A DNA stretch of 64,000 bases from an uncultured archaeon (GCA_964400475.1 CAYNTH010000001.1:819-64818), one strand, 5' to 3'; shown: positions 3,381 through 62,717, numbered from the stretch's first letter. Numbers and translations: made by a program. The notes: a model not told the origin generated them from the letters alone.

Positions 3381-3381
3381 T

Positions 3382-27294: not shown

Positions 27295-28881
27295 TTAATC
27301 ACTATTTATTTGGTAGAATTCTATCCCATGTTTTTCTTCTAATTTCTTAACATCAAAATTGTTCTCAATATTATCCCATTCTTCAATGGTAATCACGTTA
27401 CCTGTGTTTAATTTTTTTTCGGCTATACAATCCATTACATGTTTGTTAAGTATTACATAATCTAATTCTGGATAAATGTTAGTGCGGTTTTCATTGATTA
27501 TATATGTGTTTTCTCTATTTACAAACGCCAATGCCAATGTACCGTCTATACCAATGATCGAATTTTCAGGTATTTTTTCTTTTAAGTGAATGATATAATC
27601 CCATCTTTTATCATATTCTGTCGTATTTTTTTCATACTTTAGGAATGTCCCACCTTCTTTCATTATCTGCGAATTTGGTAGAGGGCAAAAATCAGAATAA
27701 TCTAGACCGTTTTCTTTTAGATGCATATTTGGATTGAGTGTATTCGTGTTGTGTAGGATTCTGGCGTAATTTAAAAAAAGCAAAAATATTATTAGGTATG
27801 TGATTATTTTTTGATTTCTAAATTTTGGAAATTTTTTCAATCTGCTGGACAATCTCTTAATAGCATATATGGAAGATACAAAGAATATTGGTATAAGTAT
27901 GGCATTGTTATTTGACCACAAATATATGTTCTTATCTCCAATGTATGCTAAATTTTCAACAATTTTTGGGATTGCGATTAGAAGTATGTCATATCCTATA
28001 ATTGGGAGAAACATGAAGATAGAGAAAATGTTTACCAAATAACTGGCGTTGTTCGTATTTTCCAAAAAAATATTTCTAATAGCAACTATTGGTAACATGA
28101 TTAGTTTGTATTTTGTTGCATCTTCTCCAAAATGTGTTCTAATTAAATCTTCGTAGTGATTGGGGAACACAGTATATCCTTTAAACATAACAAATGCATA
28201 CAGTAGAAGAATAACAATACCTCCGATTATTGGGTATATTGTCCATTTTTTGTTCTTTTCATTGTAGAAACAATAAATGCCGAAAAAAATTGCCAAAAGT
28301 GATATATTTTCTTTAGTGAGGAGAGAGAGTGTTAGAAATAAAATGAAATATCGGAAATTCTTTTTTTCGTAAAAATACCACATAAACAAGATAAATGGGA
28401 CTGCTTGGTATACCTCAAAATCTGGAGTTAATTTTAACTGCATTAATATTAATGGGTTTAATAAGAATCCCAGTCCCAAAAGAAACGCCAATTTTTTTGA
28501 GTTAAATTTAGTTTCGGCTATTTTGTAAATCGGTATTGATCCAATGGTCAACGTAATTCCGTGAAGAAAAAAATAAGTTCCCATTGTTGGATATATGCTA
28601 AAAATTATTGCACATAATATTGCCGTGAAGCTGAGATGTCCATATAAAATATTTGCCCCATACATTTCTGAAAAAGGTATAACCATCGTTATTTTTCTGG
28701 AAAAGTTAAAGAAGCTGTTCAATTCAAATCCAATATCTCTTGATCCAGATATAAATTTGTAATTCTTAAGCCAATATGATCGAGAGTATATACCGAAAAA
28801 CATTATTAATATTATTAAAATTGCCAAAAATTTATCAGAAGTTATCTGAGTTATGATTTTCGTAGCATTTTTTAATTTCAT
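27295..28881 (-). CDS. Polytopic membrane protein, DUF2079-like (putative GT-C-type), paralog of 45068-46624
   Basis: More than 10 hydrophobic segments. YGHLSFTAILCAIIFSIYP...LHGITLTIGSIPIYKIA and WYFYEKKNFRYFILFLTLSLLTKENISL are shared with the 45068 gene. It has a C-terminal soluble domain. The family call comes from pattern memory only. Confidence 0.5.
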   Translation of the reverse strand: MKLKNATKIITQITSDKFLAILIILIMFFGIYSRSYWLKNYKFISGSRDIGFELNSFFNFSRKITMVIPFSEMYGANILYGHLSFTAILCAIIFSIYPTMGTYFFLHGITLTIGSIPIYKIAETKFNSKKLAFLLGLGFLLNPLILMQLKLTPDFEVYQAVPFILFMWYFYEKKNFRYFILFLTLSLLTKENISLLAIFFGIYCFYNEKNKKWTIYPIIGGIVILLLYAFVMFKGYTVFPNHYEDLIRTHFGEDATKYKLIMLPIVAIRNIFLENTNNASYLVNIFSIFMFLPIIGYDILLIAIPKIVENLAYIGDKNIYLWSNNNAILIPIFFVSSIYAIKRLSSRLKKFPKFRNQKIITYLIIFLLFLNYARILHNTNTLNPNMHLKENGLDYSDFCPLPNSQIMKEGGTFLKYEKNTTEYDKRWDYIIHLKEKIPENSIIGIDGTLALAFVNRENTYIINENRTNIYPELDYVILNKHVMDCIAEKKLNTGNVITIEEWDNIENNFDVKKLEEKHGIEFYQINSD

Positions 28882-31181: not shown

Positions 31182-31249
31182 TATTTTGATTATATTAAGG
31201 AATATCGTAGAGAACCTTGTTAGTATTTTTTGATAATGGTGTTTGTATA

Positions 31250-32338
31250 ATGAAATATAGAGAATTGGGAAAAACTGGAATGAAAGTATCTGTAATTGGG
31301 TTGGGTGGTGGAGTTTTTAATGTGAATAAAGATCCAACATTAACTGTGAAAGAAGCAAGAAATGTCGTCTCTCATGCTGTTGAAAATGGAATTAATATAA
31401 TAGATACTAGTAAGGAGTATGATGAAGAATTCCTATCTAATGTCATTGATGATTTGGAAGACGAGCTCAAAATAATTACGAAATCTGAAGCTAGGTCCAG
31501 AAAAAAAATGAAAAATGATATGAAAGATAGCTTTGATAAAATGGGAAAAGATTTTGTAGATATATATCAACTTCACATGGTCAATTCAATAAAGGATTTG
31601 AATAATAGAATTGATGCAGGAGTTTTGGATGTTCTTAAGGATGCCAAACGAGATGGAACAATTGGACATATCGGAATATTCAGCCACAAAATAGATGTTC
31701 TTAAAGAAGCGATAAAGACCGACGAATTCGATGTTGTTACAACTCTTTACAATGCGGCTCATACAAAATCAGATGAACTGAATAGTCTTGGCGAAAGTTT
31801 CGATGTAGGCCTTATTGCTGCTGCACCACTTGCTAATGGAATATTGGTTTTACCGAAATATGGTAGAAAATCTGATGTTAAAGGTGACGTCAGTCAGATG
31901 AATGTTGAATCTGCACTGAAGTTCGTTTTATCGAATAAAAATTTTTCTACAGCTCTTGTAGGATCTAGAAACATGCCCCACATCAAGGAAAATGTCAAAA
32001 TGGGTGACATAAATTTTGATATATCACAGGGCGAGAGAGCTGAAATAGAAAGAAAGGTTTTGGAGTTTTTAGGTGAAGATTTTTGCAGAGGTTGTCGATA
32101 TTGTGAACCATGTGATGTTCACGGTGATAAACTCCCGATAAGCGACATACTCAAATTGAAAATCCTTTATGAAAGGTATGGATTAAAAAACTTTGCAAAG
32201 AATCAATATTTAATGAAAAAGAAAGTACATGGCATCCCTGAGTGTACAAAATGCATGAAGTGTGAAATTAAGTGCCCTTATAATGTTCCGATTGTAGATG
32301 AATTGGATGATGCTATCAGATTATTTGAAAATGGGTGA
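31250..32338 (+). CDS. Aldo/keto reductase fused to a C-terminal Fe-S (ferredoxin-like) domain
   Basis: MKYRELGKTGMKVSVIGLGG is a typical AKR N-terminus. The C-terminus has CRGCRYCEPC plus CTKCMKCEIKCP. The track start TTG 31217 is probably too far upstream. Confidence 0.85.
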   Translation: MKYRELGKTGMKVSVIGLGGGVFNVNKDPTLTVKEARNVVSHAVENGINIIDTSKEYDEEFLSNVIDDLEDELKIITKSEARSRKKMKNDMKDSFDKMGKDFVDIYQLHMVNSIKDLNNRIDAGVLDVLKDAKRDGTIGHIGIFSHKIDVLKEAIKTDEFDVVTTLYNAAHTKSDELNSLGESFDVGLIAAAPLANGILVLPKYGRKSDVKGDVSQMNVESALKFVLSNKNFSTALVGSRNMPHIKENVKMGDINFDISQGERAEIERKVLEFLGEDFCRGCRYCEPCDVHGDKLPISDILKLKILYERYGLKNFAKNQYLMKKKVHGIPECTKCMKCEIKCPYNVPIVDELDDAIRLFENG

Positions 32339-32342
32339 TTAG

Positions 32343-33965
32343 ATGAAATATAAAGAATTGGGAAGGACCGGGTTGAAAGTTTCCGTTTTAGGAATAGGTG
32401 GTGGTGCATTTTATGGCCCCAACAAAACCCATGAAAAGGTCAGAAAAATAATAGAATATGGTGTTAATCACGGTGTTAATTTTATAGAGACAGCTGAAGA
32501 ATACGATGAGACTAAAATTGGAAATGCTCTGAAAAATGTCAATAAGGATTTGATAATCGCGTCTAAATCGTGTGCACATACACCAGAGATAATGGAAACC
32601 GCTTTGAATAATAGTATTAAGAAAATAGGTAAAAATATCGATATTTACATGTTGCAGACTGTTATGACTTCTGATCAATTGAAGACTAGAATAGGTAATG
32701 GTACTTTAGATGTGTTAAAACATGCTAAGAAAAATGGCAAAATTAAATCTATTGGAATCACAGGTCATAGGATATCCACATTAATAGAAGCGATAAAGAC
32801 CGACGAATTCGATGTTGTCGAAGTTCCTTACAGTATAGGTCAGTTTAAAAGCGAAGAACTTTTTGAAGTTGCTGAAAAGTATGGTGTGGGTGTTATTGCT
32901 ATAACTCCTTTGGCTGGTGGAGTATTAATTGATAGAGATGGTAATAGTGATGCATCTGATTTTATGAATGCTAAAAATGCAATCGGTTACGTCATTTCTA
33001 ATAATCATGTATCAACTACTTTAGTTGGTATGAGTTCAATTGAACATATAAAAGAGAATATACAGGTAATTGATAATTATATTGATATTTCCCAAGAAGA
33101 TCGGAGATACATAGAAGAAAAAGTTATAGAATTCCTTGGAGATAATTTTTGCAGAAGTTGTAAGGCGTGCATGCCTTGTAGTAAATATGGTTGGAATTTT
33201 TCAATAGATAATTTTCTCAGATTTAAGACATTTTATTTAAAATATGGGATTGATGCTTTTGCTGAAGAATATTGGAAATTGGACTTAAAGGCCAATGAAT
33301 GTATAGAATGTGGGGGTTGTATTAATAGATGTCCTTACGGAGTTGATATAATTCAAGAGTTAAACAAAACTCACAAAATTTTTAGAGAGAAATTAGATGA
33401 CGTATCTAAGGATATAATTGGTAAAATAAATGATAAGAAAGATGAAATTGAGCGGACTCTTAAAGATTTAAAGGGTAAAATACCTCCAGATTTATACGAC
33501 GAGATGAAACAAATTTGTGATTTAAATTCTGTAGAGAAATCTCTTGGAGAGATTTTTGATATGAAGAAAGAAGAGCAGATAAGGGATTTGAGAAAAATTT
33601 TAGATCAAATTAATGAAATAAAATCCAAAATGGATAATCTCGGCGGTATTAGAGAGAATATAGAAAAAACAAGAAAGGTTAGCGAATTGATAGATTCAGT
33701 TTCAAGAACAATTCAAGAAGAGGGGGCCAAAGTTTTTTCTCATCAAGATGTCCTTGAAAGGATAAATCAGATTCATGAAAGCGTTTGTAAAGTCTATAAA
33801 ACTAAAAATATACAAGATGAAGAAATAATACGTGAATATATAAGACTTAATACTCTTCATCAAAAAGCTATGATGGAAAAAGATTCCGTTCAAAAAGGAA
33901 AGATGATGGACGATGTATTGATGAGAAACATAAAATTGCTCCAAAAAATAAAATTTTTGGATTAG
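32343..33965 (+). CDS. Aldo/keto reductase with Fe-S domain and a ~170 aa C-terminal coiled-coil extension
   Basis: MKYKELGRTGLKVSVLGIGGG, CRSCKACMPC, CIECGGCINRCP, then a K/E-rich helical tail. Confidence 0.85.
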   Translation: MKYKELGRTGLKVSVLGIGGGAFYGPNKTHEKVRKIIEYGVNHGVNFIETAEEYDETKIGNALKNVNKDLIIASKSCAHTPEIMETALNNSIKKIGKNIDIYMLQTVMTSDQLKTRIGNGTLDVLKHAKKNGKIKSIGITGHRISTLIEAIKTDEFDVVEVPYSIGQFKSEELFEVAEKYGVGVIAITPLAGGVLIDRDGNSDASDFMNAKNAIGYVISNNHVSTTLVGMSSIEHIKENIQVIDNYIDISQEDRRYIEEKVIEFLGDNFCRSCKACMPCSKYGWNFSIDNFLRFKTFYLKYGIDAFAEEYWKLDLKANECIECGGCINRCPYGVDIIQELNKTHKIFREKLDDVSKDIIGKINDKKDEIERTLKDLKGKIPPDLYDEMKQICDLNSVEKSLGEIFDMKKEEQIRDLRKILDQINEIKSKMDNLGGIRENIEKTRKVSELIDSVSRTIQEEGAKVFSHQDVLERINQIHESVCKVYKTKNIQDEEIIREYIRLNTLHQKAMMEKDSVQKGKMMDDVLMRNIKLLQKIKFLD

Positions 33966-35456: not shown

Positions 35457-36521
35457 TTAACTGAAATAATGCAATAATCTATTTCTAATCGTTTTTGTTC
35501 TGTGTGACATTTCCAATGGACAATTCAGACACTGATCTTTTAATTTGTCCTTGAGAATATTTTTTCTTATTTTCTGCATGTGTTTACTTAACCACATGTC
35601 CATTATGTTTTGAGTTTTCATACTATCTTTACTTTTATTACAATATGTTGTGCAGCACGGTCCTACTTTTCCATTCGATATTATTTGCATATAATACCAA
35701 GGCTCGTAACATTTTAAATTGAGAATTTTATTTTCATACTTTTTAGGTCCGATATTCATCTTGTTTGTATTTTTTACTGTGGTTTCGGACATTTTCATCG
35801 TATTCTCTAAATTTATACTCTTCATAAATTCAGTCATTTCTCTTTCTTGACCGTGATTTAATTTTAGTTTTTCTGCTTCCGGTGTAGTATCATTTAATTG
35901 GAGGAAATTTACATCACAATCGTATTTTTTTGCCAATTCTAGTAACTTCTTTAGTTTGTTATAATTCCTATTTGTGACAACTGTGCTGAAAGATATTTTA
36001 GGATAATCGATATTGAATTTCTTTTTCAGAGAAGAAAAAACATTCAGAGATTTTAGTATTTTGTCAAAAGCCCCATCAACCCCTCTCAGATAATCATGCG
36101 TTTCAGCATCCGGGCCATCCACACTTATTTCTACATGTTCCCACCCAGTCTTTACTATAAGAGATATGATATGTTCGTCAAAAAGTGTACCATTCGTGGT
36201 CAAGTATCCAATCATCCCCATAGATTTTATTTTTTCGATCATTGATATTGCACGGTTTCTATAGAAAAGTGGTTCACCCCCACCAACTAATCTAATTTTT
36301 TTGACTCCCAATTTGCCAGCTTCCTCTATTATTTCAACCCATCTTCTTGTAGAAAGTTCATTTTCATAATCGATAAATGAATCTTTATCATCCCTTTTTT
36401 TCCTGTAATCACAAAATAAGCAATTTAAATTACATCTAAATGTTGGCCATAATTCTATCGTGTGTGGTGGAGACTGGGAATCGTTGAACCATTTTAATAT
36501 TTTTGCAATTTTTTCGTCCAT
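35457..36521 (-). CDS. Radical SAM enzyme with SPASM/Twitch-type tail, array paralog 17
   Basis: WPTFRCNLNCLFCD, LVGGGEPL, TTNGTL, SVDGPDAETHDYLRGVDGAFDK. Tail: KCYEPWYYMQIISNGKVGPCC...QCLNC. Confidence 0.9.
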   Translation of the reverse strand: MDEKIAKILKWFNDSQSPPHTIELWPTFRCNLNCLFCDYRKKRDDKDSFIDYENELSTRRWVEIIEEAGKLGVKKIRLVGGGEPLFYRNRAISMIEKIKSMGMIGYLTTNGTLFDEHIISLIVKTGWEHVEISVDGPDAETHDYLRGVDGAFDKILKSLNVFSSLKKKFNIDYPKISFSTVVTNRNYNKLKKLLELAKKYDCDVNFLQLNDTTPEAEKLKLNHGQEREMTEFMKSINLENTMKMSETTVKNTNKMNIGPKKYENKILNLKCYEPWYYMQIISNGKVGPCCTTYCNKSKDSMKTQNIMDMWLSKHMQKIRKNILKDKLKDQCLNCPLEMSHRTKTIRNRLLHYFS

Positions 36522-36566
36522 AATCTTCTAGAAATTTATTTGTTTATTACAAAAATAAAAGAATGT

Positions 36567-37673
36567 TTATTGTAATTCAGACTTCAATTTTTCACTAAGC
36601 ATTTTATTAATTGGTAGATGGGTTGATACACAGTTCTCACAATCTTCAGGAAGATCTCTATCCATGATCCTTCTTCTGAATTCGTTGAATTCTTTCCCAT
36701 ACCATATCTCGCTGAACGTCTTGTTTTTAATGTTGATTTTTAGAGGTACTGTGGAACATGGCCATACATCCCCGTTTGCCTCTATTTTGGGCCATAACCA
36801 CGGTTCATAACAAGGTAGATTCATGAATGGGTCGGTATTTTCGACGTTTTCAACACTGGACAATATCTGTTCTTTAAATTCACCTGTTTTTTCGATGTAT
36901 TTGACTTTTTTTAATTTGTTGAAGTTGGTGGATATTTTAAACTTATCTGCTAGTTTTATGGATTCTGGTATAATTTTTTTAAAAAACATTTCTCTATTTC
37001 TTTTATTGAGCTTTAATTCTAGTGTATTGGGATTATTTACACATATCGGTTCTAAATTCAGATGATTTATAGATATTTTTTTACACAGTTTTATCATATC
37101 TGATATTTTATCATAATTTTTGTTGCACAGCACTGACGTTATTTCTATAATAGGCTTTTCAGATGACGTTTTAGATTTCATTTTATTGAATTTTTCTATA
37201 TTCTCTATAGCTTTGTCAAAAGCCCCATCAACCCCTCTCAGATAATCATGCGTTTCAGCATCCGGGCCATCTATACTGAACATGATATTATCCCATCCCA
37301 TATCAACTGTCTTCTCTATGAGTTCATCGGTCCATAAAGTACCGTTGTTTATTAACCGTCCAGAAAGACCATTTCTTTTGATAATTCCCATCATTTTAAT
37401 AGTTGTTTTTGGTTCGCAAAGTGGTTCTCCGCCACCACTAATTAATATCTGATTTGTATCCATTTCACATATTTCTTCTACCGTTTCCAACCATTTTTTC
37501 TCTGTTACAGAGTTTGTTAAATCATATTCTTTTAATTGCTGATAACAAAAAATGCATCTTAAATTACATTTGTTGGTAGGATATATTTGGACAGTTTCAG
37601 GAGACGCCTTCCCACCCTTCGCCCATTTACGAAGTCTAGATATACTGTTTTTCATTTTAGACATAAACTCCAA
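36567..37673 (-). CDS. Radical SAM enzyme with SPASM/Twitch-type tail, array paralog 18
   Basis: YPTNKCNLRCIFCY, ISGGGEPL, INNGTL, SIDGPDAETHDYLRGVDGAFDKA. Tail: PCYEPWLWPKIEANGDVWPC...DCENC. Confidence 0.9.
   Translation of the reverse strand: MEFMSKMKNSISRLRKWAKGGKASPETVQIYPTNKCNLRCIFCYQQLKEYDLTNSVTEKKWLETVEEICEMDTNQILISGGGEPLCEPKTTIKMMGIIKRNGLSGRLINNGTLWTDELIEKTVDMGWDNIMFSIDGPDAETHDYLRGVDGAFDKAIENIEKFNKMKSKTSSEKPIIEITSVLCNKNYDKISDMIKLCKKISINHLNLEPICVNNPNTLELKLNKRNREMFFKKIIPESIKLADKFKISTNFNKLKKVKYIEKTGEFKEQILSSVENVENTDPFMNLPCYEPWLWPKIEANGDVWPCSTVPLKINIKNKTFSEIWYGKEFNEFRRRIMDRDLPEDCENCVSTHLPINKMLSEKLKSELQ
37198..37346. repeat. 149-bp perfect identity tract shared by paralogs 18 and 22 (partner 41896-42044)
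   Basis: atattctctatagctttgtcaaaagcccc...ggtccataaagtaccgtt is identical in both genes. On the minus strand it encodes TLWTDELIEKTVDMGWDNIMFSIDGPDAETHDYLRGVDGAFDKAIENI. Confidence 0.9.
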
Positions 37674-39060
37674 ATATTTTTTTTATTTTCTTTCCTAATC
37701 TAGTTTTTCCTATTTTACTTCCTAGTTTAAAACTGATAGAATTTTTAATTTTTTCAAGTTCCTTTTCCTTGATTTCTAAAGATTTTATTCTCTTAAAATC
37801 GCTAAATGTACCTTTCATATTCGATTGAAATAATTCTCTTTTTAAATCCATATTTTCCTTTAGAAGATCCAATATTTTTTTTCTCATGTAACCCATATCA
37901 CGATATCTAATTATACTTCTTCTCATTTCTCTAGTATCTTCTATCACATTTGGTCTACACATTTTACAATAAGACGGTAAATTACCTTTTACGAATTTTT
38001 TTCTTATTTTTTCCATAGTGCTGCCAGTCCAAACATCTTTTAAACTCTTATTTCTAATATTGTCATCTACTTCTTTGCATTCACCACAGTGTATTACAGA
38101 ACCATCCGTTCTAATCATAAGAAAAAACCAAGGATAATAACATGGTATTGACAAGATTTCATCTTCTGAATATTCTGCCGCATCTTTGATTAGGATTTCC
38201 CTTATGTCACTTGTTTTTCCTATTAGTTCTTTCTGAAATTCTTTTTCAGGTGTTATACAAGTTATTGTAGGTGAAATGCAATAATCGTCTGCCAATTTTT
38301 TGGTCTTTTCTATTATTTCAGGTAATTCTTCGATTTCTTTATCAGTTAGTTTTAGTTCATCCCCCAGCGGTCCATATGATATCATAGGTTCTACAAATAT
38401 GGAATCTGCTCCCAATTCACTTGCTAGCTTTATCATGTCTGGTAGTTTTTTATAGTTCAATTTATTCAGAACAACATTTAATGTTATACATGGTGTTCCC
38501 TTATTCAATTTTTTCCTCCATTTATCAAACAATTTCACTGTTTTCGTGGCTTTTTCATATGTCCCCTCAACCCCTCTAATATAATCATGCGTCTCAGCAT
38601 CTGGGGCATCTATACTCACACAAATACTATCCCATCCAAGTTCGACCGTCTTTTTTACATCCTTTTCATCCCACAAAGTTCCATTCGTTGTTAGCTCCCC
38701 AAAAATATCATAAGTCTTTAGAACTTCCATAACTTTGAATAGTGTTTTTCGTTTGCACATTGGTTCGCTGATCCCAGAGATATTCCACGATTTAGTTCCC
38801 ATTTCCCCCGATTCTTTGGCGATTTCTACCCATCTCTTAGTACTCATTTCTATTTTTTTCGATTCTTCCGTTAGATTAGTTTTTGATGTTTTTCTAGAAC
38901 ACATCCTACAATCTAAATTGCATCTTCTGTGTAGTTCCGCATCTATGCGCATTGGCCCCCGTTTTTTTCCCTTGAACCAGTCTTCCATACGAAATGCGTA
39001 TTCTTCCATCCACAACATGTTCTTAAAAATTAATACATTTGTAAGTAAATCTTCTGGCAA
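37657..39060 (-). CDS. Radical SAM enzyme, array paralog 19 (ELHRRCNL subfamily), fused to a C-terminal coiled-coil plus NSISFKLG tail
   Basis: ELHRRCNLDCRMCS; the GGEP position reads ISGISEPM; TTNGTL; SIDAPDAETHDYIRGVEG. Tail: PCYYPWFFLMIRTDGSVIHCGEC...YCKMC. A ~100 aa extension ends in EKELEKIKNSISFKLGSKIGKTRLGKKIKKIF. Confidence 0.85.
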   Translation of the reverse strand: MPEDLLTNVLIFKNMLWMEEYAFRMEDWFKGKKRGPMRIDAELHRRCNLDCRMCSRKTSKTNLTEESKKIEMSTKRWVEIAKESGEMGTKSWNISGISEPMCKRKTLFKVMEVLKTYDIFGELTTNGTLWDEKDVKKTVELGWDSICVSIDAPDAETHDYIRGVEGTYEKATKTVKLFDKWRKKLNKGTPCITLNVVLNKLNYKKLPDMIKLASELGADSIFVEPMISYGPLGDELKLTDKEIEELPEIIEKTKKLADDYCISPTITCITPEKEFQKELIGKTSDIREILIKDAAEYSEDEILSIPCYYPWFFLMIRTDGSVIHCGECKEVDDNIRNKSLKDVWTGSTMEKIRKKFVKGNLPSYCKMCRPNVIEDTREMRRSIIRYRDMGYMRKKILDLLKENMDLKRELFQSNMKGTFSDFKRIKSLEIKEKELEKIKNSISFKLGSKIGKTRLGKKIKKIFGVYV

Positions 39061-40233
39061 TTAAACACCGGTTAAATTGTTTTCTTTTAGGTACAGATTT
39101 AGATCTTCCCTTAATTCTCTAGACATATCAAGAAGACCACACTTGGTACAACAGTCCATCATAACATCATTGGTGATATTATTCCTTATTTTTTTAAAAT
39201 ACTCACCGTACCAAATCTCTTCCAAGTCTTTGTCTCTTACATTCAAATTTTCGATACCCATTCCATGTGGGACACAATGGCTGACCCCACCCTTTGGGCA
39301 TATTAATAACCCGTAAAATGGTTCAAAACATCTGGATTTACAAAATTTATTTTTAATACGATTTTCTTTGTTGTTGTTCTCCATATCAGCGTTTTCTATA
39401 TCATTTCCAATTGAATATATTTCTTTTACCATATCCAAATCTAGTTTAAAGTTTTTGTACCTTTCAGCTATTTTTTTGGATTTTTTGATACCTTCCAGCA
39501 TAATTTTTTCTTCATTTTTATTCATTACCAAATGTTTAACTTGTGGTTCAATTTCATCATATACTCTCATGGGGTGTAATGCCAATTCATTACATCCGAC
39601 CTTTTTAACATATTTTACAATGTCTACAATCTTGTCGTAATTTCTATTAGTGATTACCGTATTGATCTGTATTATTGGTTTGTCTGTTTTGAACAACTTC
39701 TTGTATTTTTTAAAGAAAAGTAAATTTTTGGTAACCCTTTCAAATGCAGTTCCAATTCCTGAAATGTATTCCTGTGTTTCTTTATCTGATCCATGAATAC
39801 TAAAAATTATTCGATCCATTTTAAGCCCAACTAGTTTTTTGATATCATCCTGCTCAAGCAGAAAACCATTTGTTATAATTTCACAATTACTTTCCTGATT
39901 TTTTCGTTTAATTCTATATATCATAGAAAGGGTAGTGTCATATCTTACTAGTGGCTCACCTCCTCCTAAGAATCTCCATTCATGTACCCCCAATTCTATA
40001 CCTTTGTCTACAATATCCAGCCACTCTTCTTTATTTAGTTCATCTTCTCTTTTGAATCTTCCCGAATTCCTTGCAACTGAATTTGGGCAGAAAAAACATC
40101 TAAAATTACATCTGTTTGTGGGTATTATAGAGATTTTAAAGGGAGCTGATTGATTGCCTCTAGACCATTCGGCCAGTCTTCTAAGCTTTTCAACATAATG
40201 CGTATTGTTATATCTGTTATATGATTTACTCAT
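39061..40233 (-). CDS. Radical SAM enzyme with SPASM/Twitch-type tail, array paralog 20
   Basis: IPTNRCNFRCFFCP, FLGGGEPL, ITNGFL, SIHGSDKETQEYISG. Tail: RCFEPFYGLLICPKGGVSHC...CCTKC. Confidence 0.9.
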   Translation of the reverse strand: MSKSYNRYNNTHYVEKLRRLAEWSRGNQSAPFKISIIPTNRCNFRCFFCPNSVARNSGRFKREDELNKEEWLDIVDKGIELGVHEWRFLGGGEPLVRYDTTLSMIYRIKRKNQESNCEIITNGFLLEQDDIKKLVGLKMDRIIFSIHGSDKETQEYISGIGTAFERVTKNLLFFKKYKKLFKTDKPIIQINTVITNRNYDKIVDIVKYVKKVGCNELALHPMRVYDEIEPQVKHLVMNKNEEKIMLEGIKKSKKIAERYKNFKLDLDMVKEIYSIGNDIENADMENNNKENRIKNKFCKSRCFEPFYGLLICPKGGVSHCVPHGMGIENLNVRDKDLEEIWYGEYFKKIRNNITNDVMMDCCTKCGLLDMSRELREDLNLYLKENNLTGV

Positions 40234-40234
40234 T

Positions 40235-41311
40235 TTAACCCTGACTCAATTGTTTTCGTATATTTTCATTTTCCTCTACTAGAGGTACGCAACATCTTTT
40301 GCAACATTCTGGTAATTCTTTATTTTTAATCTTCTTACGTATATCGTTGAAATACTCACCGTACCAAATCTCTTCCAAGCTTTTGTCTTTAATATTTACA
40401 ACCTTCGAGTTGAATTGTGAGCATGGTGTTACATACCCATTTGAATTTATGTTAATAGCGTACCATGGAATGAAACACGGTATATAATCATCGTTTTTTT
40501 TGACATCTTCGGATAGAATTATTTCGTCCATATTATTGGATTTTATTGTTAATTCTTTTTCAATGATATCTCTAAGATTAGTCGATATTCCCAATCTTTC
40601 AGATTCTTTTTCGGCTTTTTTCAATTCCCCTTTGACATCGCTTAGAATGTTGTGATCGATTTTTAGTTTTTTGGATTTTTCAGTGAATTCAATCATGGGT
40701 AATATAAATACATGTTCACATTCCATTTTTTTGGCGAGTTTTATCACATCTATGATTTCCGTATAATTTCTTTTACAGAGTACAGTGTTTATTTCAATTT
40801 TTGGTTTTCGTAATCCAAGCTCTTTTTTGTATTTTTTGAAGAGTTCGATTGAATTGGTTGTTTTTTTGTATGAATTATCTGCACCTCGCAAATAATCATG
40901 GGTTTTTTCATTGCCATCAACACTGAATCTTATGAAATCCCATCCAATTTCCGTTAAACTAAATATTTCTTCCTCTTCTAACAATGTTCCATTTGTGACT
41001 ATTGAACCGTCCATGTTATTTTTTTTGATTTTTTTCATCATTTCTAATATAACGTCTTTTCTTACAAACGGTTCTCCTCCGAGTATGCTGAAAACTTCTA
41101 CACCCAATTCCCCTGCGGTTTCCACAATTTTTAACAATTCATCTTTATTCAATTCTTTATTGTTTTTTTCAAGTAGTGGAAAATTACAAAATTTACACTT
41201 TAAGTTGCATTTTTCTGTGATGAATACATCCATTTTTACAGGAGGTTGTGGATATCCTTCAAACCATGAAGTCACGTTTTTTGTTACGTTTTCAATATTT
41301 ATTCGTATCAC
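40235..41311 (-). CDS. Radical SAM enzyme with SPASM/Twitch-type tail, array paralog 21
   Basis: FITEKCNLKCKFCN, ILGGEPF, VTNGTL, SVDGNEKTHDYLRG. Tail: PCFIPWYAININSNGYVTPC...CCKRCC. Confidence 0.9.
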   Translation of the reverse strand: MIRINIENVTKNVTSWFEGYPQPPVKMDVFITEKCNLKCKFCNFPLLEKNNKELNKDELLKIVETAGELGVEVFSILGGEPFVRKDVILEMMKKIKKNNMDGSIVTNGTLLEEEEIFSLTEIGWDFIRFSVDGNEKTHDYLRGADNSYKKTTNSIELFKKYKKELGLRKPKIEINTVLCKRNYTEIIDVIKLAKKMECEHVFILPMIEFTEKSKKLKIDHNILSDVKGELKKAEKESERLGISTNLRDIIEKELTIKSNNMDEIILSEDVKKNDDYIPCFIPWYAININSNGYVTPCSQFNSKVVNIKDKSLEEIWYGEYFNDIRKKIKNKELPECCKRCCVPLVEENENIRKQLSQG

Positions 41312-42359
41312 CTTTCAGTATCTTCCTGACCTTTTCGTTTAATTCTGGCCTCAATTTATTACAGTTCTTGCACCTATCAGGTAATATACTCGATATCATC
41401 TTATTTCTGAATTCGTTGAATTCTTTCCCATACCATATCTCGCTGAACGTCTTGTTTTTAATGTTACCTAGATTTATTTGATTTAATGGGCATACGGTTA
41501 CATTTCCATCTGAATTTATTGTTGGTCTAATCCACGGTTCATAACAATATACGTTTTTTATATTTTTTACATTCGTTGATTTTTCATCTAACGCAATATC
41601 GTTTTTTATATTCAAATCAAGAAAGTTATATTTAATTCCATATGATTTTGCAATTTCTTCAGATTCAATCAAGAACTTTTTTGCTATTTTTCTTTGAGAA
41701 TTGTCTAATTTTATTTTTGTCGCAACATCATTTTTTTCTATCATTTCATTTACATCCATGAAATCTATATTTAATTTTGCAGCCATCTCCACGATTTCCG
41801 GAATTTCTTTATAATTTTTAGAACAAATCGTTACTTGAATACCTAATGACGGCAAATCAGACTCGATACTTTTTTTCATTTCGTTGAATTTTTTGATATT
41901 CTCTATAGCTTTGTCAAAAGCCCCATCAACCCCTCTCAGATAATCATGCGTTTCAGCATCCGGGCCATCTATACTGAACATGATATTATCCCATCCCATA
42001 TCAACTGTCTTCTCTATGAGTTCATCGGTCCATAAAGTACCGTTCGTTATAATTGTGCCCGTTATATTGTTAGATTTAATTATTTTCATAAGTTCTTTAG
42101 TAACGTCTGGGTTATGTAGTGGCTCTCCCCCACCACTTAAATAAATTTTTTCAACCCCCATTTCACACAATTCTTTAGTTACATTAATCAATTCATCCTT
42201 TTTGATATCTTTCATTGTGTTTTTTTTATAGGATGGTACATTGCAAAATATACATTTCAGATTGCATAATCTGAATGGGTGTATTTCTACTGAATATGGT
42301 GAAAATTTTATATTAGATTTCCATTTCATTATTCTTTCAGTGATTTTATCTACTTTCAT
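41292..42359 (-). CDS. Radical SAM enzyme with SPASM/Twitch-type tail, array paralog 22
   Basis: HPFRLCNLKCIFCN, LSGGGEPL, ITNGTL, SIDGPDAETHDYLRGVDGAFDKA. Tail: YCYEPWIRPTINSDGNVTVC...RCKNC. Confidence 0.9.
   Translation of the reverse strand: MKVDKITERIMKWKSNIKFSPYSVEIHPFRLCNLKCIFCNVPSYKKNTMKDIKKDELINVTKELCEMGVEKIYLSGGGEPLHNPDVTKELMKIIKSNNITGTIITNGTLWTDELIEKTVDMGWDNIMFSIDGPDAETHDYLRGVDGAFDKAIENIKKFNEMKKSIESDLPSLGIQVTICSKNYKEIPEIVEMAAKLNIDFMDVNEMIEKNDVATKIKLDNSQRKIAKKFLIESEEIAKSYGIKYNFLDLNIKNDIALDEKSTNVKNIKNVYCYEPWIRPTINSDGNVTVCPLNQINLGNIKNKTFSEIWYGKEFNEFRNKMISSILPDRCKNCNKLRPELNEKVRKILKGDTNKY
41896..42044. repeat. 149-bp perfect identity tract (partner 37198-37346)
   Basis: See the partner entry. 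A further 82-bp perfect tract links 36654-36735 with 42454-42535 (paralogs 18 and 23), and 61 bp of it recur at 41405-41465 (paralog 22). Confidence 0.9.
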
Positions 42360-42363
42360 AAAA

Positions 42364-43467
42364 TCATTTCGATTTTATTTCTTTTAGGCTATTCCTTATT
42401 TTTTTATTCAATGATAGATGGGTTGATACACAGTTCTCACAGCCCTCTGGTAAATCTCTATCCATGATCCTTCTTCTGAATTCGTTGAATTCTTTCCCAT
42501 ACCATATCTCGCTGAACGTCTTGTTTTTAATGTTGGCATTTAAACTGTTAGTCGAACAAACTCCTATTGTACCATCTGCCTCTATCTTGGGCCATAACCA
42601 CGGTTCATAACAAGGTAGATTCAGGAATGAGTTATCCAATCCCGTGTTCTCGCTATTAGATAGTATCTGTTCTTTTAATTCACCCGTTTTTTCAACGTTC
42701 TCAACTTCTAAAATATCTTCGATATTAGTCGTAATATTCAGAGATTCCGATATCTGTACGACCTTTGGTACAATATTTTCAATAAAAAACATCCTCTCAC
42801 TTTCGTCAAGTTTTAAGTTTTTTACAGATGGGTTGCTCACAAATACAGGTTCTATAGTGATGTTTTCAACCCTCAATTCACTTGCCATCTCCACGATTTC
42901 CGGAATTTCTTTATAATTTATATTTGTGAGTACGGTGCTGAATTCGAGTTTTGGTATATCTCTTTTTGTTTCTTTTTTGTAGTCGTTAAAATATTTTATA
43001 TTTTTAATGATTTTTTCGAAGCATCCTTCCACACCCCTGGATTTATTTTGAATATCTGCGTTGGGACCATCCACACTGAAAATAACATTATCCCATCCCA
43101 TATCAACTGTTTTCTCTATGAGTTCATCGGTCCACAGAGTGCCGTTATTAACCAATCTTCCAGTTTTTTTGAATGATTTTACGATTTCCATCATTTCAAT
43201 AACAATATCGGATACAATCATCGGTTCTCCACCGCCGCTAATTTGTATTATATCAACCCCCATTTCACACAATTCTTTAGTTATAGAAATCCATTTTTCT
43301 TTTCCCAATTCATCAGTATAGTCGTATGGGGACAATCTCTGGAAGCAAAATGGACATTTCAAATTGCATCTATTTGTTGGATAAACAAGAACTCTTTGAG
43401 GTCCAGCTTTATCTCCATCGGACCATTTTCCCAACCGATTAACTAAATTTTGAATTTCCATTATCAA
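42364..43467 (-). CDS. Radical SAM enzyme with SPASM/Twitch-type tail, array paralog 23
   Basis: YPTNRCNLKCPFCF, ISGGGEPM, VNNGTL, SVDGPNADIQNKSRG. Tail: PCYEPWLWPKIEADGTIGVC...GCENC. Confidence 0.9.
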   Translation of the reverse strand: MIMEIQNLVNRLGKWSDGDKAGPQRVLVYPTNRCNLKCPFCFQRLSPYDYTDELGKEKWISITKELCEMGVDIIQISGGGEPMIVSDIVIEMMEIVKSFKKTGRLVNNGTLWTDELIEKTVDMGWDNVIFSVDGPNADIQNKSRGVEGCFEKIIKNIKYFNDYKKETKRDIPKLEFSTVLTNINYKEIPEIVEMASELRVENITIEPVFVSNPSVKNLKLDESERMFFIENIVPKVVQISESLNITTNIEDILEVENVEKTGELKEQILSNSENTGLDNSFLNLPCYEPWLWPKIEADGTIGVCSTNSLNANIKNKTFSEIWYGKEFNEFRRRIMDRDLPEGCENCVSTHLSLNKKIRNSLKEIKSK

Positions 43468-43597: not shown

Positions 43598-45010
43598 GTG
43601 GATAAAATTAAAATAGTCCTTGTCCATTCGCCACATTTCCATCAACAGTTCATGGAGAATTTAGAATTCGTTAGTAATAATTTTGGCAAGTTCCCCCCAT
43701 TGGGATTGATGTATGTATCTTCGATATTGAAATCACATGGACACGATGTTATTATCATAGATTCTAATGTAGAGGGGCTTTCTAAAAAGGAGACAGTGAG
43801 CAGAATTAAGGAATTCAATCCAAATTTGGTCGGTTTCATGCTAACTATTTTCATGGGGGGAGAAACTTTAAAATGGGCCAGATATGTTAAAGAAAAAACA
43901 GGGTTACCAATAATTGTCGGAAATTATGCAATGGTACATTATCCAGAATCCATAATATCAAATGATTTTGTGGATTATGGTATTATTGGATCTGCTAGAG
44001 AGTCATTGCCTAGATTGATTGATTCATTGGAAAATAATAACGACATTAAGAATATAGAAGGGATTGCATTCAAAGACAGTGATGGAAAATTAATAATCAA
44101 TATGCCAAAAGATATCACCGAAGATTTGAATAAATTGCCCTTTCCTGACAGAGATTCTATAGATAATTCTAAGTATTATAGCATGGCCTCCAAGAAGAAA
44201 CCATTTACCATAATGACTACATCTTATGGTTGTCCATTTAATTGCGATTTTTGTGATATGGGCAGATTCGGTTATAGGGAACGTGATGTTGGTCAGGTTG
44301 TTGATGAGATCGAAATATGTGTTAAAAAATATGGTATAAAGGAAATCGATATTTTTGATAGGGATTTTTTAATAAATAAAGAACGGAGCAGGAAAATATG
44401 TGAAAAGATAATTGAACGTGGTATAGAAGTTGATTGGTCTTGTAGAACCAGAGTCGATCAAGTTGATGAAGATATATTGAAACTTATGAAGGATGCCGGG
44501 TGTAGATTAATTTTATATGGCATAGAATCTGGAGATCAGAAGATATTGGATAATGAACATAAGGGAATAAAGTTAAGTCAGATTAAAAATTCGATACAAA
44601 TTACTAAGAATATTGGAATAGAAACACTAGGATTTATAATAATCGGTCATCCTGGTGATACGATTGAGACTATAAGAAAGACCATTAATTTTTCAAAGGA
44701 ATTACCTCTTGATTATGTTCAATTCTTTAAGATGAGTGGAAAACCTGGTGCTAAGTTGTATGATCAAATAGTCGATGAGATGGGATACGATTATTTTGAA
44801 AAGTTTTTGAGGTTAGATATAGATGAGAGAGATTTACCAAGACCATGGACGGATTTGAGTAGCGAAGAAATCGAGAAGTGGGTTTCTAGGGCGTATGTAG
44901 AGTTCTATATGAGACCTAAATATTTGTTCAAACGACTCGTTAATGTAAGGTCCCCTAATGAATTTCTTAAATATTTAAGAGTAGGTGCTGAGATGTTATA
45001 TTCAATTTAA
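43598..45010 (+). CDS. B12-binding-domain-type (class B-like) radical SAM enzyme
   Basis: KIVLVHSP...PPLGLMYVSSILKSHGHDVIIIDSN (B12-binding-like N-domain), then TTSYGCPFNCDFCDM (CX3CX2C). 470 aa. Confidence 0.85.
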   Translation: MDKIKIVLVHSPHFHQQFMENLEFVSNNFGKFPPLGLMYVSSILKSHGHDVIIIDSNVEGLSKKETVSRIKEFNPNLVGFMLTIFMGGETLKWARYVKEKTGLPIIVGNYAMVHYPESIISNDFVDYGIIGSARESLPRLIDSLENNNDIKNIEGIAFKDSDGKLIINMPKDITEDLNKLPFPDRDSIDNSKYYSMASKKKPFTIMTTSYGCPFNCDFCDMGRFGYRERDVGQVVDEIEICVKKYGIKEIDIFDRDFLINKERSRKICEKIIERGIEVDWSCRTRVDQVDEDILKLMKDAGCRLILYGIESGDQKILDNEHKGIKLSQIKNSIQITKNIGIETLGFIIIGHPGDTIETIRKTINFSKELPLDYVQFFKMSGKPGAKLYDQIVDEMGYDYFEKFLRLDIDERDLPRPWTDLSSEEIEKWVSRAYVEFYMRPKYLFKRLVNVRSPNEFLKYLRVGAEMLYSI

Positions 45011-45067: not shown

Positions 45068-46624
45068 ATGATATTTGGTAATTTTACTGCAGGATTTGAT
45101 GCTAATATATGGAAAAAAATGATAAGCGACAGAGTTCTTCTTGCAATTTTTTTAATCGTGTTCCTCTTTTCGACGTATTCTATGATTTATTGGAAAAATA
45201 ATTACAAATATTGTTCTGCATGTTCAGATACAGCTTTCGAAATAAACGCACTTTTTAATTCAGTATCAGGAAATCTGAATAATTTTTTTTATTCCACTCT
45301 CGGAGATAGAAGTATGATACACGACCACACCAATTTGACTTTTTTATTATATATTATAATTTTCTATATTTTTCCCAGCTTTAATACATATTATTTTCTT
45401 CACGGATTGACATTATCAATAGGAGCAATTCCTGTTTATAAAATTTCAGAACTGAAATTCAAATCCAGAAGAATAGCATTTTTGTTTTCATTATTATTTT
45501 TATTCAACCCACTGACAATTTTATTTTTAAAGGGGAAGGTTCTATTAAGAACTTATTCTGCAATCCCATTTTTACTTTTTACATGGTACTTTTATGAAAA
45601 AAAGAATTTCCGATATTTTACAATATTTTTAATTTTATCTTTGTTAACAAAAGAAAATATATCCCTAGTTTCGATTATGATGGGTTTATATTTTTGGATA
45701 AAGGGAGATAAAAAATATTCAAAAATTTCATTCATTGGAGGAATTTTGATATTTTTGTTATATTTATCTAATTTATTCGGTTACTTTGATGCATCCTATC
45801 ACAAGGTTATAGAGATACATTTTGGTAAGGATTTCATCGAGAATAAATTATATTTGAATCCTTTTAATGTATTTGAAAGGATATTTTCTGTTAATAATAT
45901 TAATTATCTTATTATTATTTTCTCGTTTTTTTCTTTTCTTCCATTAGTTGCTCCAGAAATATTGATAATAGCTGTTCCCAAATTCTTGGAAAATTTATTA
46001 TACGTAGACATTGACATAACTTCCAAGAATAATGCAATATTATTTCCATTATTATTCATTTCCATGATTTATGGGACTCATAATCTTAAAAAACGTATTA
46101 AAAATCCGAATTTGAAAAGACATTCAACTTTTTTGATTTTCTTAGTTTTGTTTTTCGGTTATATCATCTTCTTTAATCATTACATGATATTTAGTGGATA
46201 TGTACATAGAATAGTTGGGGTAAATAGAGGTTGTAAAGAATTAATGACGGATACCATATACGGTACAGGTCTCGCTGATTTTTTTTATTACCCTAAAACA
46301 GATGCATACGATTTGAAATGGAATTATGTACTTGAACTAAAAGATAAACTGCCTAAAAATGCTAGTTTGGTAGTTGATAGAAGTTTAACATTACCTTTTG
46401 CAGACAGACCAGGCGTTTATATGATACATGCAGCTGAGAGAAACCAAGAAAAAATAGAGTATATTGTTTTAAACGAAGAGCTCATCGATTGTTTGGAAAA
46501 TAAAGATTCCCCGTTATCTGGAGATTTTCATTCTAAATCTAGATATTATTCATATATTGAACAAAATAACATGACTAAGATAAGCCAAAGTAATGGAATA
46601 TCGCTTTTTGGACACGAATCATGA
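45068..46624 (+). CDS. Polytopic membrane protein, DUF2079-like (putative GT-C-type), paralog of 27295-28881
   Basis: DHTNLTFLLYIIIFYIFP...LHGLTLSIGAIPVYKIS and WYFYEKKNFRYFTIFLILSLLTKENISL. The architecture matches the 27295 gene. Confidence 0.5.
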   Translation: MIFGNFTAGFDANIWKKMISDRVLLAIFLIVFLFSTYSMIYWKNNYKYCSACSDTAFEINALFNSVSGNLNNFFYSTLGDRSMIHDHTNLTFLLYIIIFYIFPSFNTYYFLHGLTLSIGAIPVYKISELKFKSRRIAFLFSLLFLFNPLTILFLKGKVLLRTYSAIPFLLFTWYFYEKKNFRYFTIFLILSLLTKENISLVSIMMGLYFWIKGDKKYSKISFIGGILIFLLYLSNLFGYFDASYHKVIEIHFGKDFIENKLYLNPFNVFERIFSVNNINYLIIIFSFFSFLPLVAPEILIIAVPKFLENLLYVDIDITSKNNAILFPLLFISMIYGTHNLKKRIKNPNLKRHSTFLIFLVLFFGYIIFFNHYMIFSGYVHRIVGVNRGCKELMTDTIYGTGLADFFYYPKTDAYDLKWNYVLELKDKLPKNASLVVDRSLTLPFADRPGVYMIHAAERNQEKIEYIVLNEELIDCLENKDSPLSGDFHSKSRYYSYIEQNNMTKISQSNGISLFGHES

Positions 46625-49108: not shown

Positions 49109-50215
49109 ATGGAAAAAATTGTCGAATCATTTATAAGTTGGATCAATGGAAACGTAAAAGGTCCATTAAAATTGCAGTTAAATCCAACCAATAGATGCAA
49201 TTTGAAATGCAGATTCTGTTGGTTACGGGATTATGATTCTAAACCTACCAATTATGATGAGGTAGACAGAGACCGGTATCTAGAAATAATTGAAGAAGCA
49301 AATGATTTAGGTGTCAACAAAATTGAAATAACCGGTGGCGGCGAACCGTTTTGTAGGTCTGATATACTCGATATCATGGAAAGAATAAAATCCTATAATA
49401 TTTTTGGGGAATTGATTACAAATGGAACTTTGTTTAACAATGATTCTATAAAAAAAATAATTGATATTGGTTGGGATAGAATCGTTTTTAGTTTGGATGC
49501 ACCTGATGCTGAGACGCATGATTATCTGAGAGGGGTTAGTGGATCATTTGAAAAAACAGCTTATTCTATAAAAGAATTCATAAAACACACTGACGATATG
49601 AAAAAAAGTCTACCTGAATTATGTGTTCATATGGTATTATGTAATGAAAACCATGATAAAATTTCAACTATGTTCGAATTCGTGAACAGTCTTGGTATAG
49701 ATAATCTATTTATAGAACCTATCGTGCTTCTAGCACCTGAAACAAATTCTGGTAATGATCTTATGATTGACTCTGAGCATAAGAAGAAATTATTATTGGA
49801 AATTGAAGATGCGATAGAAATTGCGACAAAATATGGATTTAAAACGAATATAGACAAATTAAGGCTGCAATTTATTGAGAACGTAAATAAAATGGATAAA
49901 TTCATAATTAGTGAATCGGTTCGATATGATAAGAATTCATTATTATCGATACCATGTTATTATCCGTGGTATCAGATGATAATAAGGCCTTGGGGGTCAG
50001 TTGGTCCATGTTGTATGTTCGATAATATTGGTGAGAACATAAAGGAGAAAAGTTTACATGACATATGGTATGGCGATTATTTTGAAAAAATGAGAGATAT
50101 ATTGAAAAAAAATAAACTTCCTAAATTTTGTTCAAAATGCAATCCTAGTCAAGTCCAGGAGAATAATAAAATACGTGAGTTTTTGAAAAGATATGAAAGA
50201 CGAAAAAATCAATAG
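49109..50215 (+). CDS. Radical SAM enzyme with SPASM/Twitch-type tail, array paralog 25
   Basis: NPTNRCNLKCRFCW, ITGGGEPF, ITNGTL, SLDAPDAETHDYLRGVSGSFEK. Tail: PCYYPWYQMIIRPWGSVGPCC...FCSKC. Confidence 0.9.
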   Translation: MEKIVESFISWINGNVKGPLKLQLNPTNRCNLKCRFCWLRDYDSKPTNYDEVDRDRYLEIIEEANDLGVNKIEITGGGEPFCRSDILDIMERIKSYNIFGELITNGTLFNNDSIKKIIDIGWDRIVFSLDAPDAETHDYLRGVSGSFEKTAYSIKEFIKHTDDMKKSLPELCVHMVLCNENHDKISTMFEFVNSLGIDNLFIEPIVLLAPETNSGNDLMIDSEHKKKLLLEIEDAIEIATKYGFKTNIDKLRLQFIENVNKMDKFIISESVRYDKNSLLSIPCYYPWYQMIIRPWGSVGPCCMFDNIGENIKEKSLHDIWYGDYFEKMRDILKKNKLPKFCSKCNPSQVQENNKIREFLKRYERRKNQ

Positions 50216-59861: not shown

Positions 59862-59923
59862 TTATTTTATTGGACAATTGATTTAGTTAAATCTATATCT
59901 AATATTCTATATAATAGGAGATA

Positions 59924-61309: not shown

Positions 61310-61344
61310 GAACGCCTTTATATCTAAAAAATAAGTTTTAGAAT

Positions 61345-62712: not shown

Positions 62713-62717
62713 TTTCT

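Follow-up and report, generated by a model that had tools for sequence, protein, structure and literature searches.

Short tracts of identical DNA shared in a reticulate pattern among anciently diverged radical SAM paralogs of an uncultured archaeon

How do genes that diverged long ago come to hold stretches of identical DNA, and to hold different stretches in common with different partners? The question is raised by a stretch of 64,000 nucleotides (nt) from an uncultured archaeon (GCA_964400475.1, CAYNTH010000001.1:819-64818), the whole of which is referred to here as the window. Positions 10690-52407 of the window carry an array of ~27 tandem genes that encode proteins of 344–467 amino acids (aa), each composed of a radical S-adenosylmethionine (SAM) domain and a C-terminal cluster domain of the SPASM/twitch type. 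The overall identity between these paralogs is 28–52% at the protein level and 45–63% at the DNA level, and yet four of them on the minus strand, p17, p18, p22 and p23, contain tracts in which the DNA of one gene is repeated without change in another. An earlier note on this DNA had proposed that the exchange behind these tracts is reticulate and many-to-many and not the outcome of a single recent duplication. This proposal is supported here by tracts that are private to single pairs, by saturated synonymous divergence around them, by discordance with orthologs and by the age of the paralogs. The tracts probably record gene conversion that recurred in short patches (~30–170 nt), was non-reciprocal, and took place between neighbours of like orientation in an ancient array.

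Identical tracts among p17, p18, p22 and p23

The tracts are designated A, B and C, and their coordinates are collected in Table 1. The earlier note had described A1 and B1 as perfect tracts of 149 and 82 bp. Both are exact at every position and are maximal exact matches, and the recurrence of 61 bp of B1 in p22 (tract B2) is confirmed. The match described for p17 is real but had been placed slightly off, being 60 nt long and starting at 36060 rather than ~58 bp from ~36062; the coordinate errors for the tracts amount to 2 bp at most. With mismatches allowed, A1 extends to 171 nt at 97.7% identity (37176-37346 versus 41874-42044), and B1 to 134 nt at 93.3% (36602-36735 versus 42402-42535), a form that extends as far as the final CxxC motif in the auxiliary-cluster domain. 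In the AlphaFold model of p18 (pLDDT, the predicted local confidence, 94.3), tract A corresponds to aa 110–166 and comprises the end of β3 (N110, G111), α3, β4 (FSIDG) and most of α4 (DAETHDYLRGVDGAFDKAIENI). Within it, S133 is invariant and D135 nearly so; from the radical SAM fold in general, we take this region to be the SAM-binding core. Tract B (p18 aa 313–358) takes in the helices at the C-terminal end of the auxiliary-cluster domain, with C345 and C348 among its residues.

Identity of this kind exceeds what conserved protein sequence would produce. Over their whole length, the paralogs that share these tracts are 30–52% identical in aa and 50–63% in nt. Among degenerate codons that encode the same amino acid in both genes, all are identical inside the tracts (45/45 for p18–p22, 25/25 for p18–p23 and 20/20 for p17–p18), versus 52–60% outside them. 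Synonymous divergence (dS, by the NG86 method) is 0.03–0.6 in the tract regions, even when these are generously drawn, and 1.4–2.5 or undefined, that is saturated, outside. A null model, in which the 27 array proteins were held fixed and their codons were redrawn from the codon usage of the array in 300 simulations, predicts 0.19 exact aligned runs of at least 30 nt and none of at least 60 nt, with a maximum of 48 nt. The array itself contains 20 runs of at least 30 nt, 12 of which reach at least 60 nt, with a maximum of 159 nt. Chance falls far short of explaining the direct tracts, and pure conservation at the protein level is ruled out by the comparison of 0.19 with 20 runs.

The distribution of the tracts among the genes is incompatible with a single history. 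Tract A1 is shared by p18 and p22, and p23 lacks its second half; the flanks of B1, together with B3, are shared by p18 and p23 and absent from p22; C1 and C2 are shared by p22 and p23 and absent from p18; p17 has only a 60-nt sub-tract of A1. Because each pair of p18, p22 and p23 has tracts of its own, no single tree fits. In sliding windows, p18 is 100% identical to p22 in alignment columns 435–540 and 100% identical to p23 in columns 1155–1215. Over its N-terminal two thirds p18 stays near the median identity of the array (~45–55%), and through the C-terminal third its identity to p23 is still elevated, at 67–90%. The p18–p22 and p17–p18 comparisons pass from ~50% to 100% and back to ~50%, so that two breakpoints are visible in each. 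For these four genes, about four to six events would be needed at minimum.

A further match runs in the opposite direction. The earlier note had reported an inverted tract of about 24 bp between p25, on the plus strand, and the minus-strand block, and had suggested that such tracts could mediate inversions. The 24-mer (ACGCATGATTATCTGAGAGGGGTT) exists, at 49514-49537 rather than ~49516-49539, and extends to 33 nt with one mismatch. No exact inverted match between paralogs of the array is longer. Under the null model, at least 24 shared nt arise in some opposite-strand pair with a probability of 0.13, and in p25 against p17, p18 and p22 with one of 0.015; the length of the 24-mer is thus near chance, close to what protein conservation and codon bias provide. 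The 24-mer lies inside the genes, away from the boundaries of the minus block at 34.3-43.5 kb and the plus block at 48.0-52.4 kb, and none of the 170 opposite-strand pairs of the array has a tract of at least 30 nt. Given its near-chance length and its location, inversion mediated by the 24-mer is unsupported. Gene order and orientation do differ between the window and three related loci (L010, L006 and L001), which shows that rearrangements have happened; no link between those rearrangements and the tracts was found.

Orthologs, distance and codon usage across the array

Most paralogs of the window have their own best match, at 45–65% aa identity, in loci of other metagenome-assembled genomes (MAGs) of Aenigmatarchaeota. 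Orthologs of p18 are found in five other MAG loci (49–56% aa identity) and those of p23 in 11 other loci (51–59%); for p16 and p17, related loci provide only weak matches, of 33% and 40%. When positions 10690-52407 are compared with loci L001, L003, L006, L009, L010 and L014, the array orthologs are mostly one-to-one and gene order is partly conserved. The order is p25 p24 / p19 / p15 p14 p20 / p23 p21 p13 / p12 p11 p10 p9 p8 p7 in L010, p23 p21 p20 p19 p18 in L001, and p27 p26 p25 p24 / p23 p21 p20 in L006. Since most paralogs have an ortholog of their own in a partly conserved order, the paralogs are ancient. The gene p22 is set apart in this respect. No ortholog of it was found in a database of 5.8 billion proteins, in which its top matches are p18 (45%) and p23 (44%) of its own genome, and it is inserted between p23 and p21, which adjoin each other in four other genomes. 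On these grounds p22 is a lineage-specific, fast-diverged member of the p18/p23 clade. It is also the most heavily patched gene of the array, with 277 nt in exact tracts.

Agreement between phylogenies of the tracts and of their flanks would, according to the earlier note, speak against exchange. A comparison of identities (not a formal tree test) among p18-type and p23-type genes from six genomes finds discordance. In tract B, the p18-type and p23-type genes within one genome are 0.89 identical in the window and 0.98 identical in MAG ARS1414, whereas orthologs are 0.58–0.59 identical. In the N-terminal and middle regions the order is reversed, with 0.57 and 0.45 for orthologs versus 0.44 and 0.33 for paralogs within a genome. 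The homogenisation of tract B is missing in the four other genomes. In ARS1414 the two genes are located on contigs NZBH01000047 and NZBH01000014 and share 144 nt at 93%; their DNA identity is 90–95% over the last 120 aligned nt versus 53–76% over most of the remaining gene (one window reaches 83%). Their longest exact run is just 33 nt, which argues for an older event. The comparison indicates that the same region of the p18/p23 pair was converted independently in two lineages, represented by two independent assemblies. The identity of the tracts to p18-type and to p23-type orthologs is about equal, and the events are therefore not polarised.

Across the array, all 15 pairs with a tract of at least 30 nt are on the same strand and no more than ~7.5 kb apart; no such tract occurs in the 86 same-strand pairs separated by more than 9 kb. 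Tracts are concentrated in two hotspots, alignment columns 480–570 (6 pairs) and 1140–1230 (7 pairs), with a minor one at the N terminus. The hotspots match peaks of background DNA identity (0.60–0.62; Spearman 0.42, p=0.016). Identity within tracts ranges from 100% down to 91%, decayed flanks included, which points to events of different ages. For the peptide motif D[AG]PDAETHDYLRG[MV]DGAFDKA there are two codon "alleles" with many synonymous differences, one in p7, p9 and p11 of the plus block and one in p17, p18 and p22 of the minus block. Such block-specific alleles of one motif fit local conversion and argue against a function at the nucleotide level.

The tracts also differ from the rest of the array in composition. 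The GC content at third codon positions (GC3) is 0.46 when all tract copies are counted and 0.44 when each tract family is counted once, versus 0.30 in the same alignment columns of paralogs that have no tract there and 0.29 elsewhere (Fisher p ~1e-6, with sites treated as independent). This rise is the pattern expected from GC-biased gene conversion, and preferential initiation in GC-richer stretches could give it too.

Exact tracts of at least 30 nt are found in 15 of 95 same-strand neighbour pairs of the window versus 3 of 143 in related loci. The computed count for the latter was 5 of 143; one repeat of 98 nt in L003 and one of 73 nt in L009 were discounted, from the ORF (open reading frame) coordinates, as apparent overlaps of adjacent ORF calls. 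The difference has p=0.0014 as computed on 5/143, a conservative value because the two overlap artefacts are still counted in it. The excess means either that conversion in this lineage is more active or of later date, or that differences in assembly play a part. Locus L010 has three tracts of 38–41 nt. A related Aenigmatarchaeota locus, L007, contains a 106-nt exact direct repeat (2940-3045 and 3390-3495), the 450-nt spacing of which is unlike that of the paralogs.

Other paralog families of the window, the Tes-like genes and a pair of aldo-keto reductase genes (33 nt), have tracts as well. The Tes-like (tetraether lipid synthase-like) radical SAM genes are four tandem paralogs, T1 to T4, at 58599-64000; T2, the one scanned, scores 222 bits against a cut-off of 450 for NF045702.

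Table 1. Genes and shared tracts in the window (positions counted from the first nucleotide of the window)
Feature	Position	Strand	Description
p17	35457-36521	-	354 aa; radical SAM and SPASM/twitch-like; ORF call with sub-threshold NCBIfam radical SAM/SPASM matches
p18	36567-37673	-	368 aa from first start codon; radical SAM (PF04055) and SPASM (PF13186)
p22	41292-42359	-	355 aa; member of the p18/p23 clade
p23	42364-43467	-	367 aa
p25	49109-50215	+	array paralog
Tract A1, p18 copy	37198-37346	-	149/149 nt repeated at 41896-42044; exact and maximal
Tract A1, p22 copy	41896-42044	-	149 nt, identical to p18
Tract A2, p17 copy	36060-36119	-	60 nt, identical to 37212-37271 (p18) and 41910-41969 (p22)
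Tract A3, p23 copy	43087-43134	-	48 nt, 1 mismatch to 37287-37334 (p18) / 41985-42032 (p22)
Tract B1, p18 copy	36654-36735	-	82 nt, identical to 42454-42535 of p23 (82/82); maximal; encodes NIKNKTFSEIWYGKEFNEFRRRIMDRD
Tract B1, p23 copy	42454-42535	-	82 nt, identical to p18
Tract B2, p22 copy	41405-41465	-	61 nt, identical to 36674-36734 (p18) and 42474-42534 (p23)
Tract B3, p18	36777-36829	-	53 nt at 96% to 42577-42629 (p23); encodes the PCYEPWLWPKIEA region
Tract C1	41782-41817	-	p22 and p23 only; 36 nt, exact copy at 42884-42919
Tract C2	42151-42181	-	p22 and p23 only; 31 nt, exact copy at 43253-43283
24-mer ACGCATGATTATCTGAGAGGGGTT, p25	49514-49537	+	reverse complement at 36078 (p17), 37230 (p18) and 41928 (p22)
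p9 = p11	21401-21559; copy 24185-24343	+	159 nt; protein region of tract A, other codon "allele"
p7 = p9 = p11	19206-19270 (p7)	+	65 nt of the p9/p11 tract
p2 = p3	12657-12783; copy 13750-13876	+	127 nt, within 205 nt at 91.7%
p2 = p3, second tract	12168-12238; copy 13252-13322	+	71 nt, exact
p26 = p27			65 nt
p25 = p27			55 nt
p8 = p9			44 nt
Tes-like T2 = T3	60008-60078; copy 61414-61484	+	71 nt
Tes-like T1 = T4	58994-59032; copy 63080-63118		39 nt

Probable gene conversion and the alternatives

Conversion of this kind could proceed as follows. Exchange would start where conserved protein motifs hold the background DNA identity at its highest (~60%) and chance runs reach ~20–26 nt. Strand invasion mediated by a recombinase, or template switching during replication between nearby direct repeats, would then move a patch from one paralog to another, and each patch would lengthen the identity and favour further exchange. 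Purifying selection may keep patches only in modules that are interchangeable, namely the SAM-binding β3-α3-β4-α4 unit and the C-terminal helices of the auxiliary-cluster domain, so that the remainder, which would determine specificity, stays diverged. The higher GC3 of the tracts might stem from a preference for GC during heteroduplex repair or at initiation. The course of tract A3 would fit such a selective filter against converting residues that are specific to a subfamily. In p23 it ends just upstream of the p23-specific NADIQNKSRG; several p23 orthologs have a similar motif (e.g., INDKSRG), and p18-type genes have HDYLRG at this place.

Several points weigh against gene conversion as described. 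The source proteins occur once in a collection of 15 billion proteins, on a single NCBI contig of 164,124 bp, without support from reads or from a second assembly, and graph simplification or polishing could turn tracts of ~95–98% identity into tracts of 100%. Demonstrating the direction of the transfers, and that they are non-reciprocal, would take a close outgroup. Orientation and distance are confounded in the array. The CxxxCxxC and GGGEP regions have a similar background identity (0.56–0.58 and 0.56) and no long tract; homology alone is thus insufficient to explain the hotspots. Finally, exact tracts are ~8 times fewer in the related loci.

The main caveat among these concerns the assembly. 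Similar stretches might have been made identical by collapse of bubbles in a de Bruijn graph or by polishing with mis-mapped reads, or the contig might be chimeric. The sequence is a single contig derived from a metagenome, and none of the collections searched contains an independent assembly of the organism: exact-protein look-ups with p18, p22 and P0001, the database protein of p18 (which starts three codons downstream of the first start codon), retrieve no record, a cluster look-up leads to single-member clusters from one NCBI contig, a scan of GTDB-representative genomes provides relatives at 46–56% identity only, exact 24-mer searches of JGI metagenome contigs give no match, and the best hit of the p22 protein in a metagenome scan is 34%. 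The exact repeats, at 127–159 nt, equal or exceed the k-mer sizes that assemblers commonly use, and the scarcity of exact tracts in the related MAG loci would also fit an artefact. Collapse, however, only sharpens similarity that exists already and cannot create 150 nt of near-identity where two genes are ~50% identical before and after the stretch, and a chimeric join at a repeat would leave the repeat in place. The range of tract identities is continuous, all 27 ORFs are intact, the independent ARS1414 assembly is homogenised in the same region of the same pair, and L010 has its tracts of 38–41 nt; an artefact therefore appears improbable as the source of the pattern. Hybrid genes formed by unequal crossing-over, or a recent segmental duplication of which the tracts are the undiverged remains, would be a second route to identity, and the lineage-specific p22, inserted between genes that are adjacent elsewhere, does imply some duplication in this lineage. 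A single crossover, however, leaves one breakpoint and long, one-sided identity, and every tract here is short, with synonymous divergence saturated in the sequence on either side of it. Blocks of high identity that run for more than 500 nt from a tract to the end of a gene are absent, and p22 is at most 44–45% identical in aa to any gene. The two breakpoints per tract and the saturated dS of the flanks rule out a single recent duplication or unequal crossover as such, and we consider this whole class of explanation very improbable.

The recurrence of tract boundaries at similar columns (~483–548 and ~1146–1207) in independent tract families could be taken as a sign of selection on the nucleotides themselves, for instance on an embedded structured RNA, or on a DNA site for regulation or protein binding, the sequence of which would be maintained in several genes. 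Such an element would be expected to persist in orthologs, but matches between the window and the related loci are no longer than 38 nt at 94–97%, or 81–90% identical when longer, and the two codon alleles encode one motif with different nucleotides. No Rfam family matches anywhere in the window and the folding z-scores of four tracts are ordinary (-0.81 to +0.29), which rules out an embedded RNA and leaves nucleotide-level selection barely credible. The same recurrent boundaries, and the confinement of the tracts mainly to two discrete modules while not every equally conserved region is affected, can also be read as adaptive. The modules might be co-adapted to one shared partner, or new enzyme combinations might be programmed to serve a surface structure that varies, in an archaeon dependent on a host. 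The independent homogenisation of the p18/p23 region in a second lineage is in line with this idea, as are other genes of the locus, which encode, besides glycosyltransferases and an ABC exporter-like pair, membrane proteins of a GT-C-like type and a Cys-rich secreted protein of giant size. On the other hand, it is the conserved segments that are homogenised and not the variable ones, four of the six genomes lack the homogenisation of tract B, and inspection of the ORF list by eye, which was not a systematic scan, found no recombinase, diversity-generating element or repeat signal beside the tracts. There are no silent cassettes; all 27 copies are intact, full-length operon ORFs and the tracts are in the two most conserved regions, which speaks against programmed cassette variation. 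A neutral process with a selective filter accounts for the same data, and adaptive sharing seems unlikely overall.

Gene conversion may nevertheless have a larger consequence, which we offer tentatively and as rather doubtful. Conversion that is GC-biased and limited by proximity might, together with selection, keep two cofactor-binding modules (the SAM-binding β3–β4 unit and the auxiliary-cluster helices) co-evolving across more than 20 anciently diverged enzymes of one undescribed radical SAM pathway, with the substrate-specific parts remaining orthologous across the phylum. This would amount to modular concerted evolution of an enzyme assembly line, and a possible reason for it is that a single partner or scaffold, common to all of the enzymes, serves as their docking site.

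The locus and its relation to known systems

The host is placed as an uncultured DPANN (Aenigmatarchaeota-like) archaeon, the nearest relatives of which, in the collections searched, are MAGs labelled Aenigmatarchaeota, Nanoarchaeota or "archaeon" (DPANN). The window is AT-rich, with ~30–36% GC across most of its length. All 27 array ORFs are full-length, in frame and packed as in an operon. In the five paralogs scanned against Pfam, PF04055 scores 62–90 bits (cut-off 29.5) and PF13186 33–50 bits (cut-off 21.5). The paralogs share seven invariant cysteines (C36, C40, C43, C288, C306, C345 and C348), comprising the CxxxCxxC core motif and C-terminal Cys ligands. All NCBIfam families score far below their cut-offs for these proteins, the highest being TIGR04317 (100–132 bits versus 380). 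The paralogs are thus members of the radical SAM and SPASM/twitch superfamily and fall in none of the named NCBIfam equivalogs. A search of the literature found nothing specific on the array or on conversion in radical SAM families. The array is unusually large, makes up a large share of a probably small genome, and is described in no curated family or paper found.

Other genes are interspersed in the array: two B12-binding radical SAM genes, two DUF2079 membrane proteins, the aldo-keto reductase pair and four Tes-like radical SAM genes, together with glycosyltransferase-like genes and an ABC exporter-like pair that are labelled from sequence only. Three pairs appear duplicated. The aldo-keto reductases (31217-33965) have Cys-rich tails and share a 33-nt exact tract (31705-31737 and 32786-32818); the DUF2079 pair (27295-28881 and 45068-46624) is in opposite orientation and shares 35 nt at 94%, inverted; the B12-binding radical SAM genes are located at 17215-18825 and 43598-45010. 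These three pairs suggest that the locus grew by duplication of multi-gene modules. At the start of the window (1-3390), a minus-strand ORF of more than 1132 aa runs past the window's edge. Its product has an N-terminal hydrophobic segment and is very rich in Cys, with CDGSGSC-like repeats; the local GC content is 41–42% versus ~32% elsewhere, and the GC skew is strongly negative. The ORF, which adjoins the radical SAM array, probably encodes a giant protein that is secreted or located at the surface, and this protein could be a substrate.

The locus provides a clean example, with numbers attached, of probable gene conversion at a divergence of 30–45% protein identity between paralogs, confined to short patches in modules of the catalytic core and marked by raised GC3, in an uncultured archaeon with a probably small genome. 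We know of no genetics in DPANN archaea, and the window may give rare data on tract length, homology needs and a possible GC bias in these organisms. Trees, orthology calls and the ratios of nonsynonymous to synonymous substitution (dN/dS) will be distorted for this radical SAM family unless the tracts are masked, and exact repeats of 127–159 nt make the locus prone to assembly error. The analysis also draws attention to a ~27-gene radical SAM array that is conserved across the phylum.

As enzymes, the paralogs resemble SkfB, SuiB, DesII, BlsE and anSME, which are the nearest structures to the p18 model by Foldseek (E 1e-14 to 1e-11). Like these, they combine PF04055 and PF13186, the CxxxCxxC motif and C-terminal Cys ligands; unlike these, they reach no curated NCBIfam family at its cut-off, and their sequence identity to the solved structures is 14–20%. 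As regards the process, in the pilE/pilS system of Neisseria and vlsE of Borrelia one expression site is accompanied by silent, truncated cassettes, and gene conversion diversifies the variable regions. The likeness to these systems lies in mosaic genes that arise via short, non-reciprocal transfers from several linked, paralogous donors; the difference is that every copy in the present array is an intact operon gene, co-oriented with the others, and that the conserved catalytic core is homogenised. Closer in kind are the mtrA-1 and mtrA-2 paralogs of methanogens, in which gene conversion affects part of a domain (PMC4632066). There, too, patches of near-identity occur between old paralogs, paralogs of one genome resemble each other more than orthologs do in the converted part and nowhere else, the remainder of the protein diverges, and the same region has been homogenised repeatedly in separate lineages. 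Whereas mtrA is one gene pair (PMC4632066), at least 15 pairs of a ~27-member array are involved here, with many-to-many sharing, much shorter tracts (30–170 nt), partners that are 28–52% identical in protein, and enrichment in GC3. Short-patch, discontinuous conversion tracts are also known from recombination in Sulfolobus acidocaldarius (reviewed in PMC4471258). That case shares with the present one an archaeal host and very short, patchy tracts, which suggests localised strand removal and resynthesis in a heteroduplex; it was, however, observed experimentally with nearly identical donor DNA (PMC4471258), whereas conversion is deduced here from one genome and between highly diverged paralogs. 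The process is accordingly of a known kind, interparalog gene conversion or concerted evolution, and it is the setting that is new and the case that is unusually rich.

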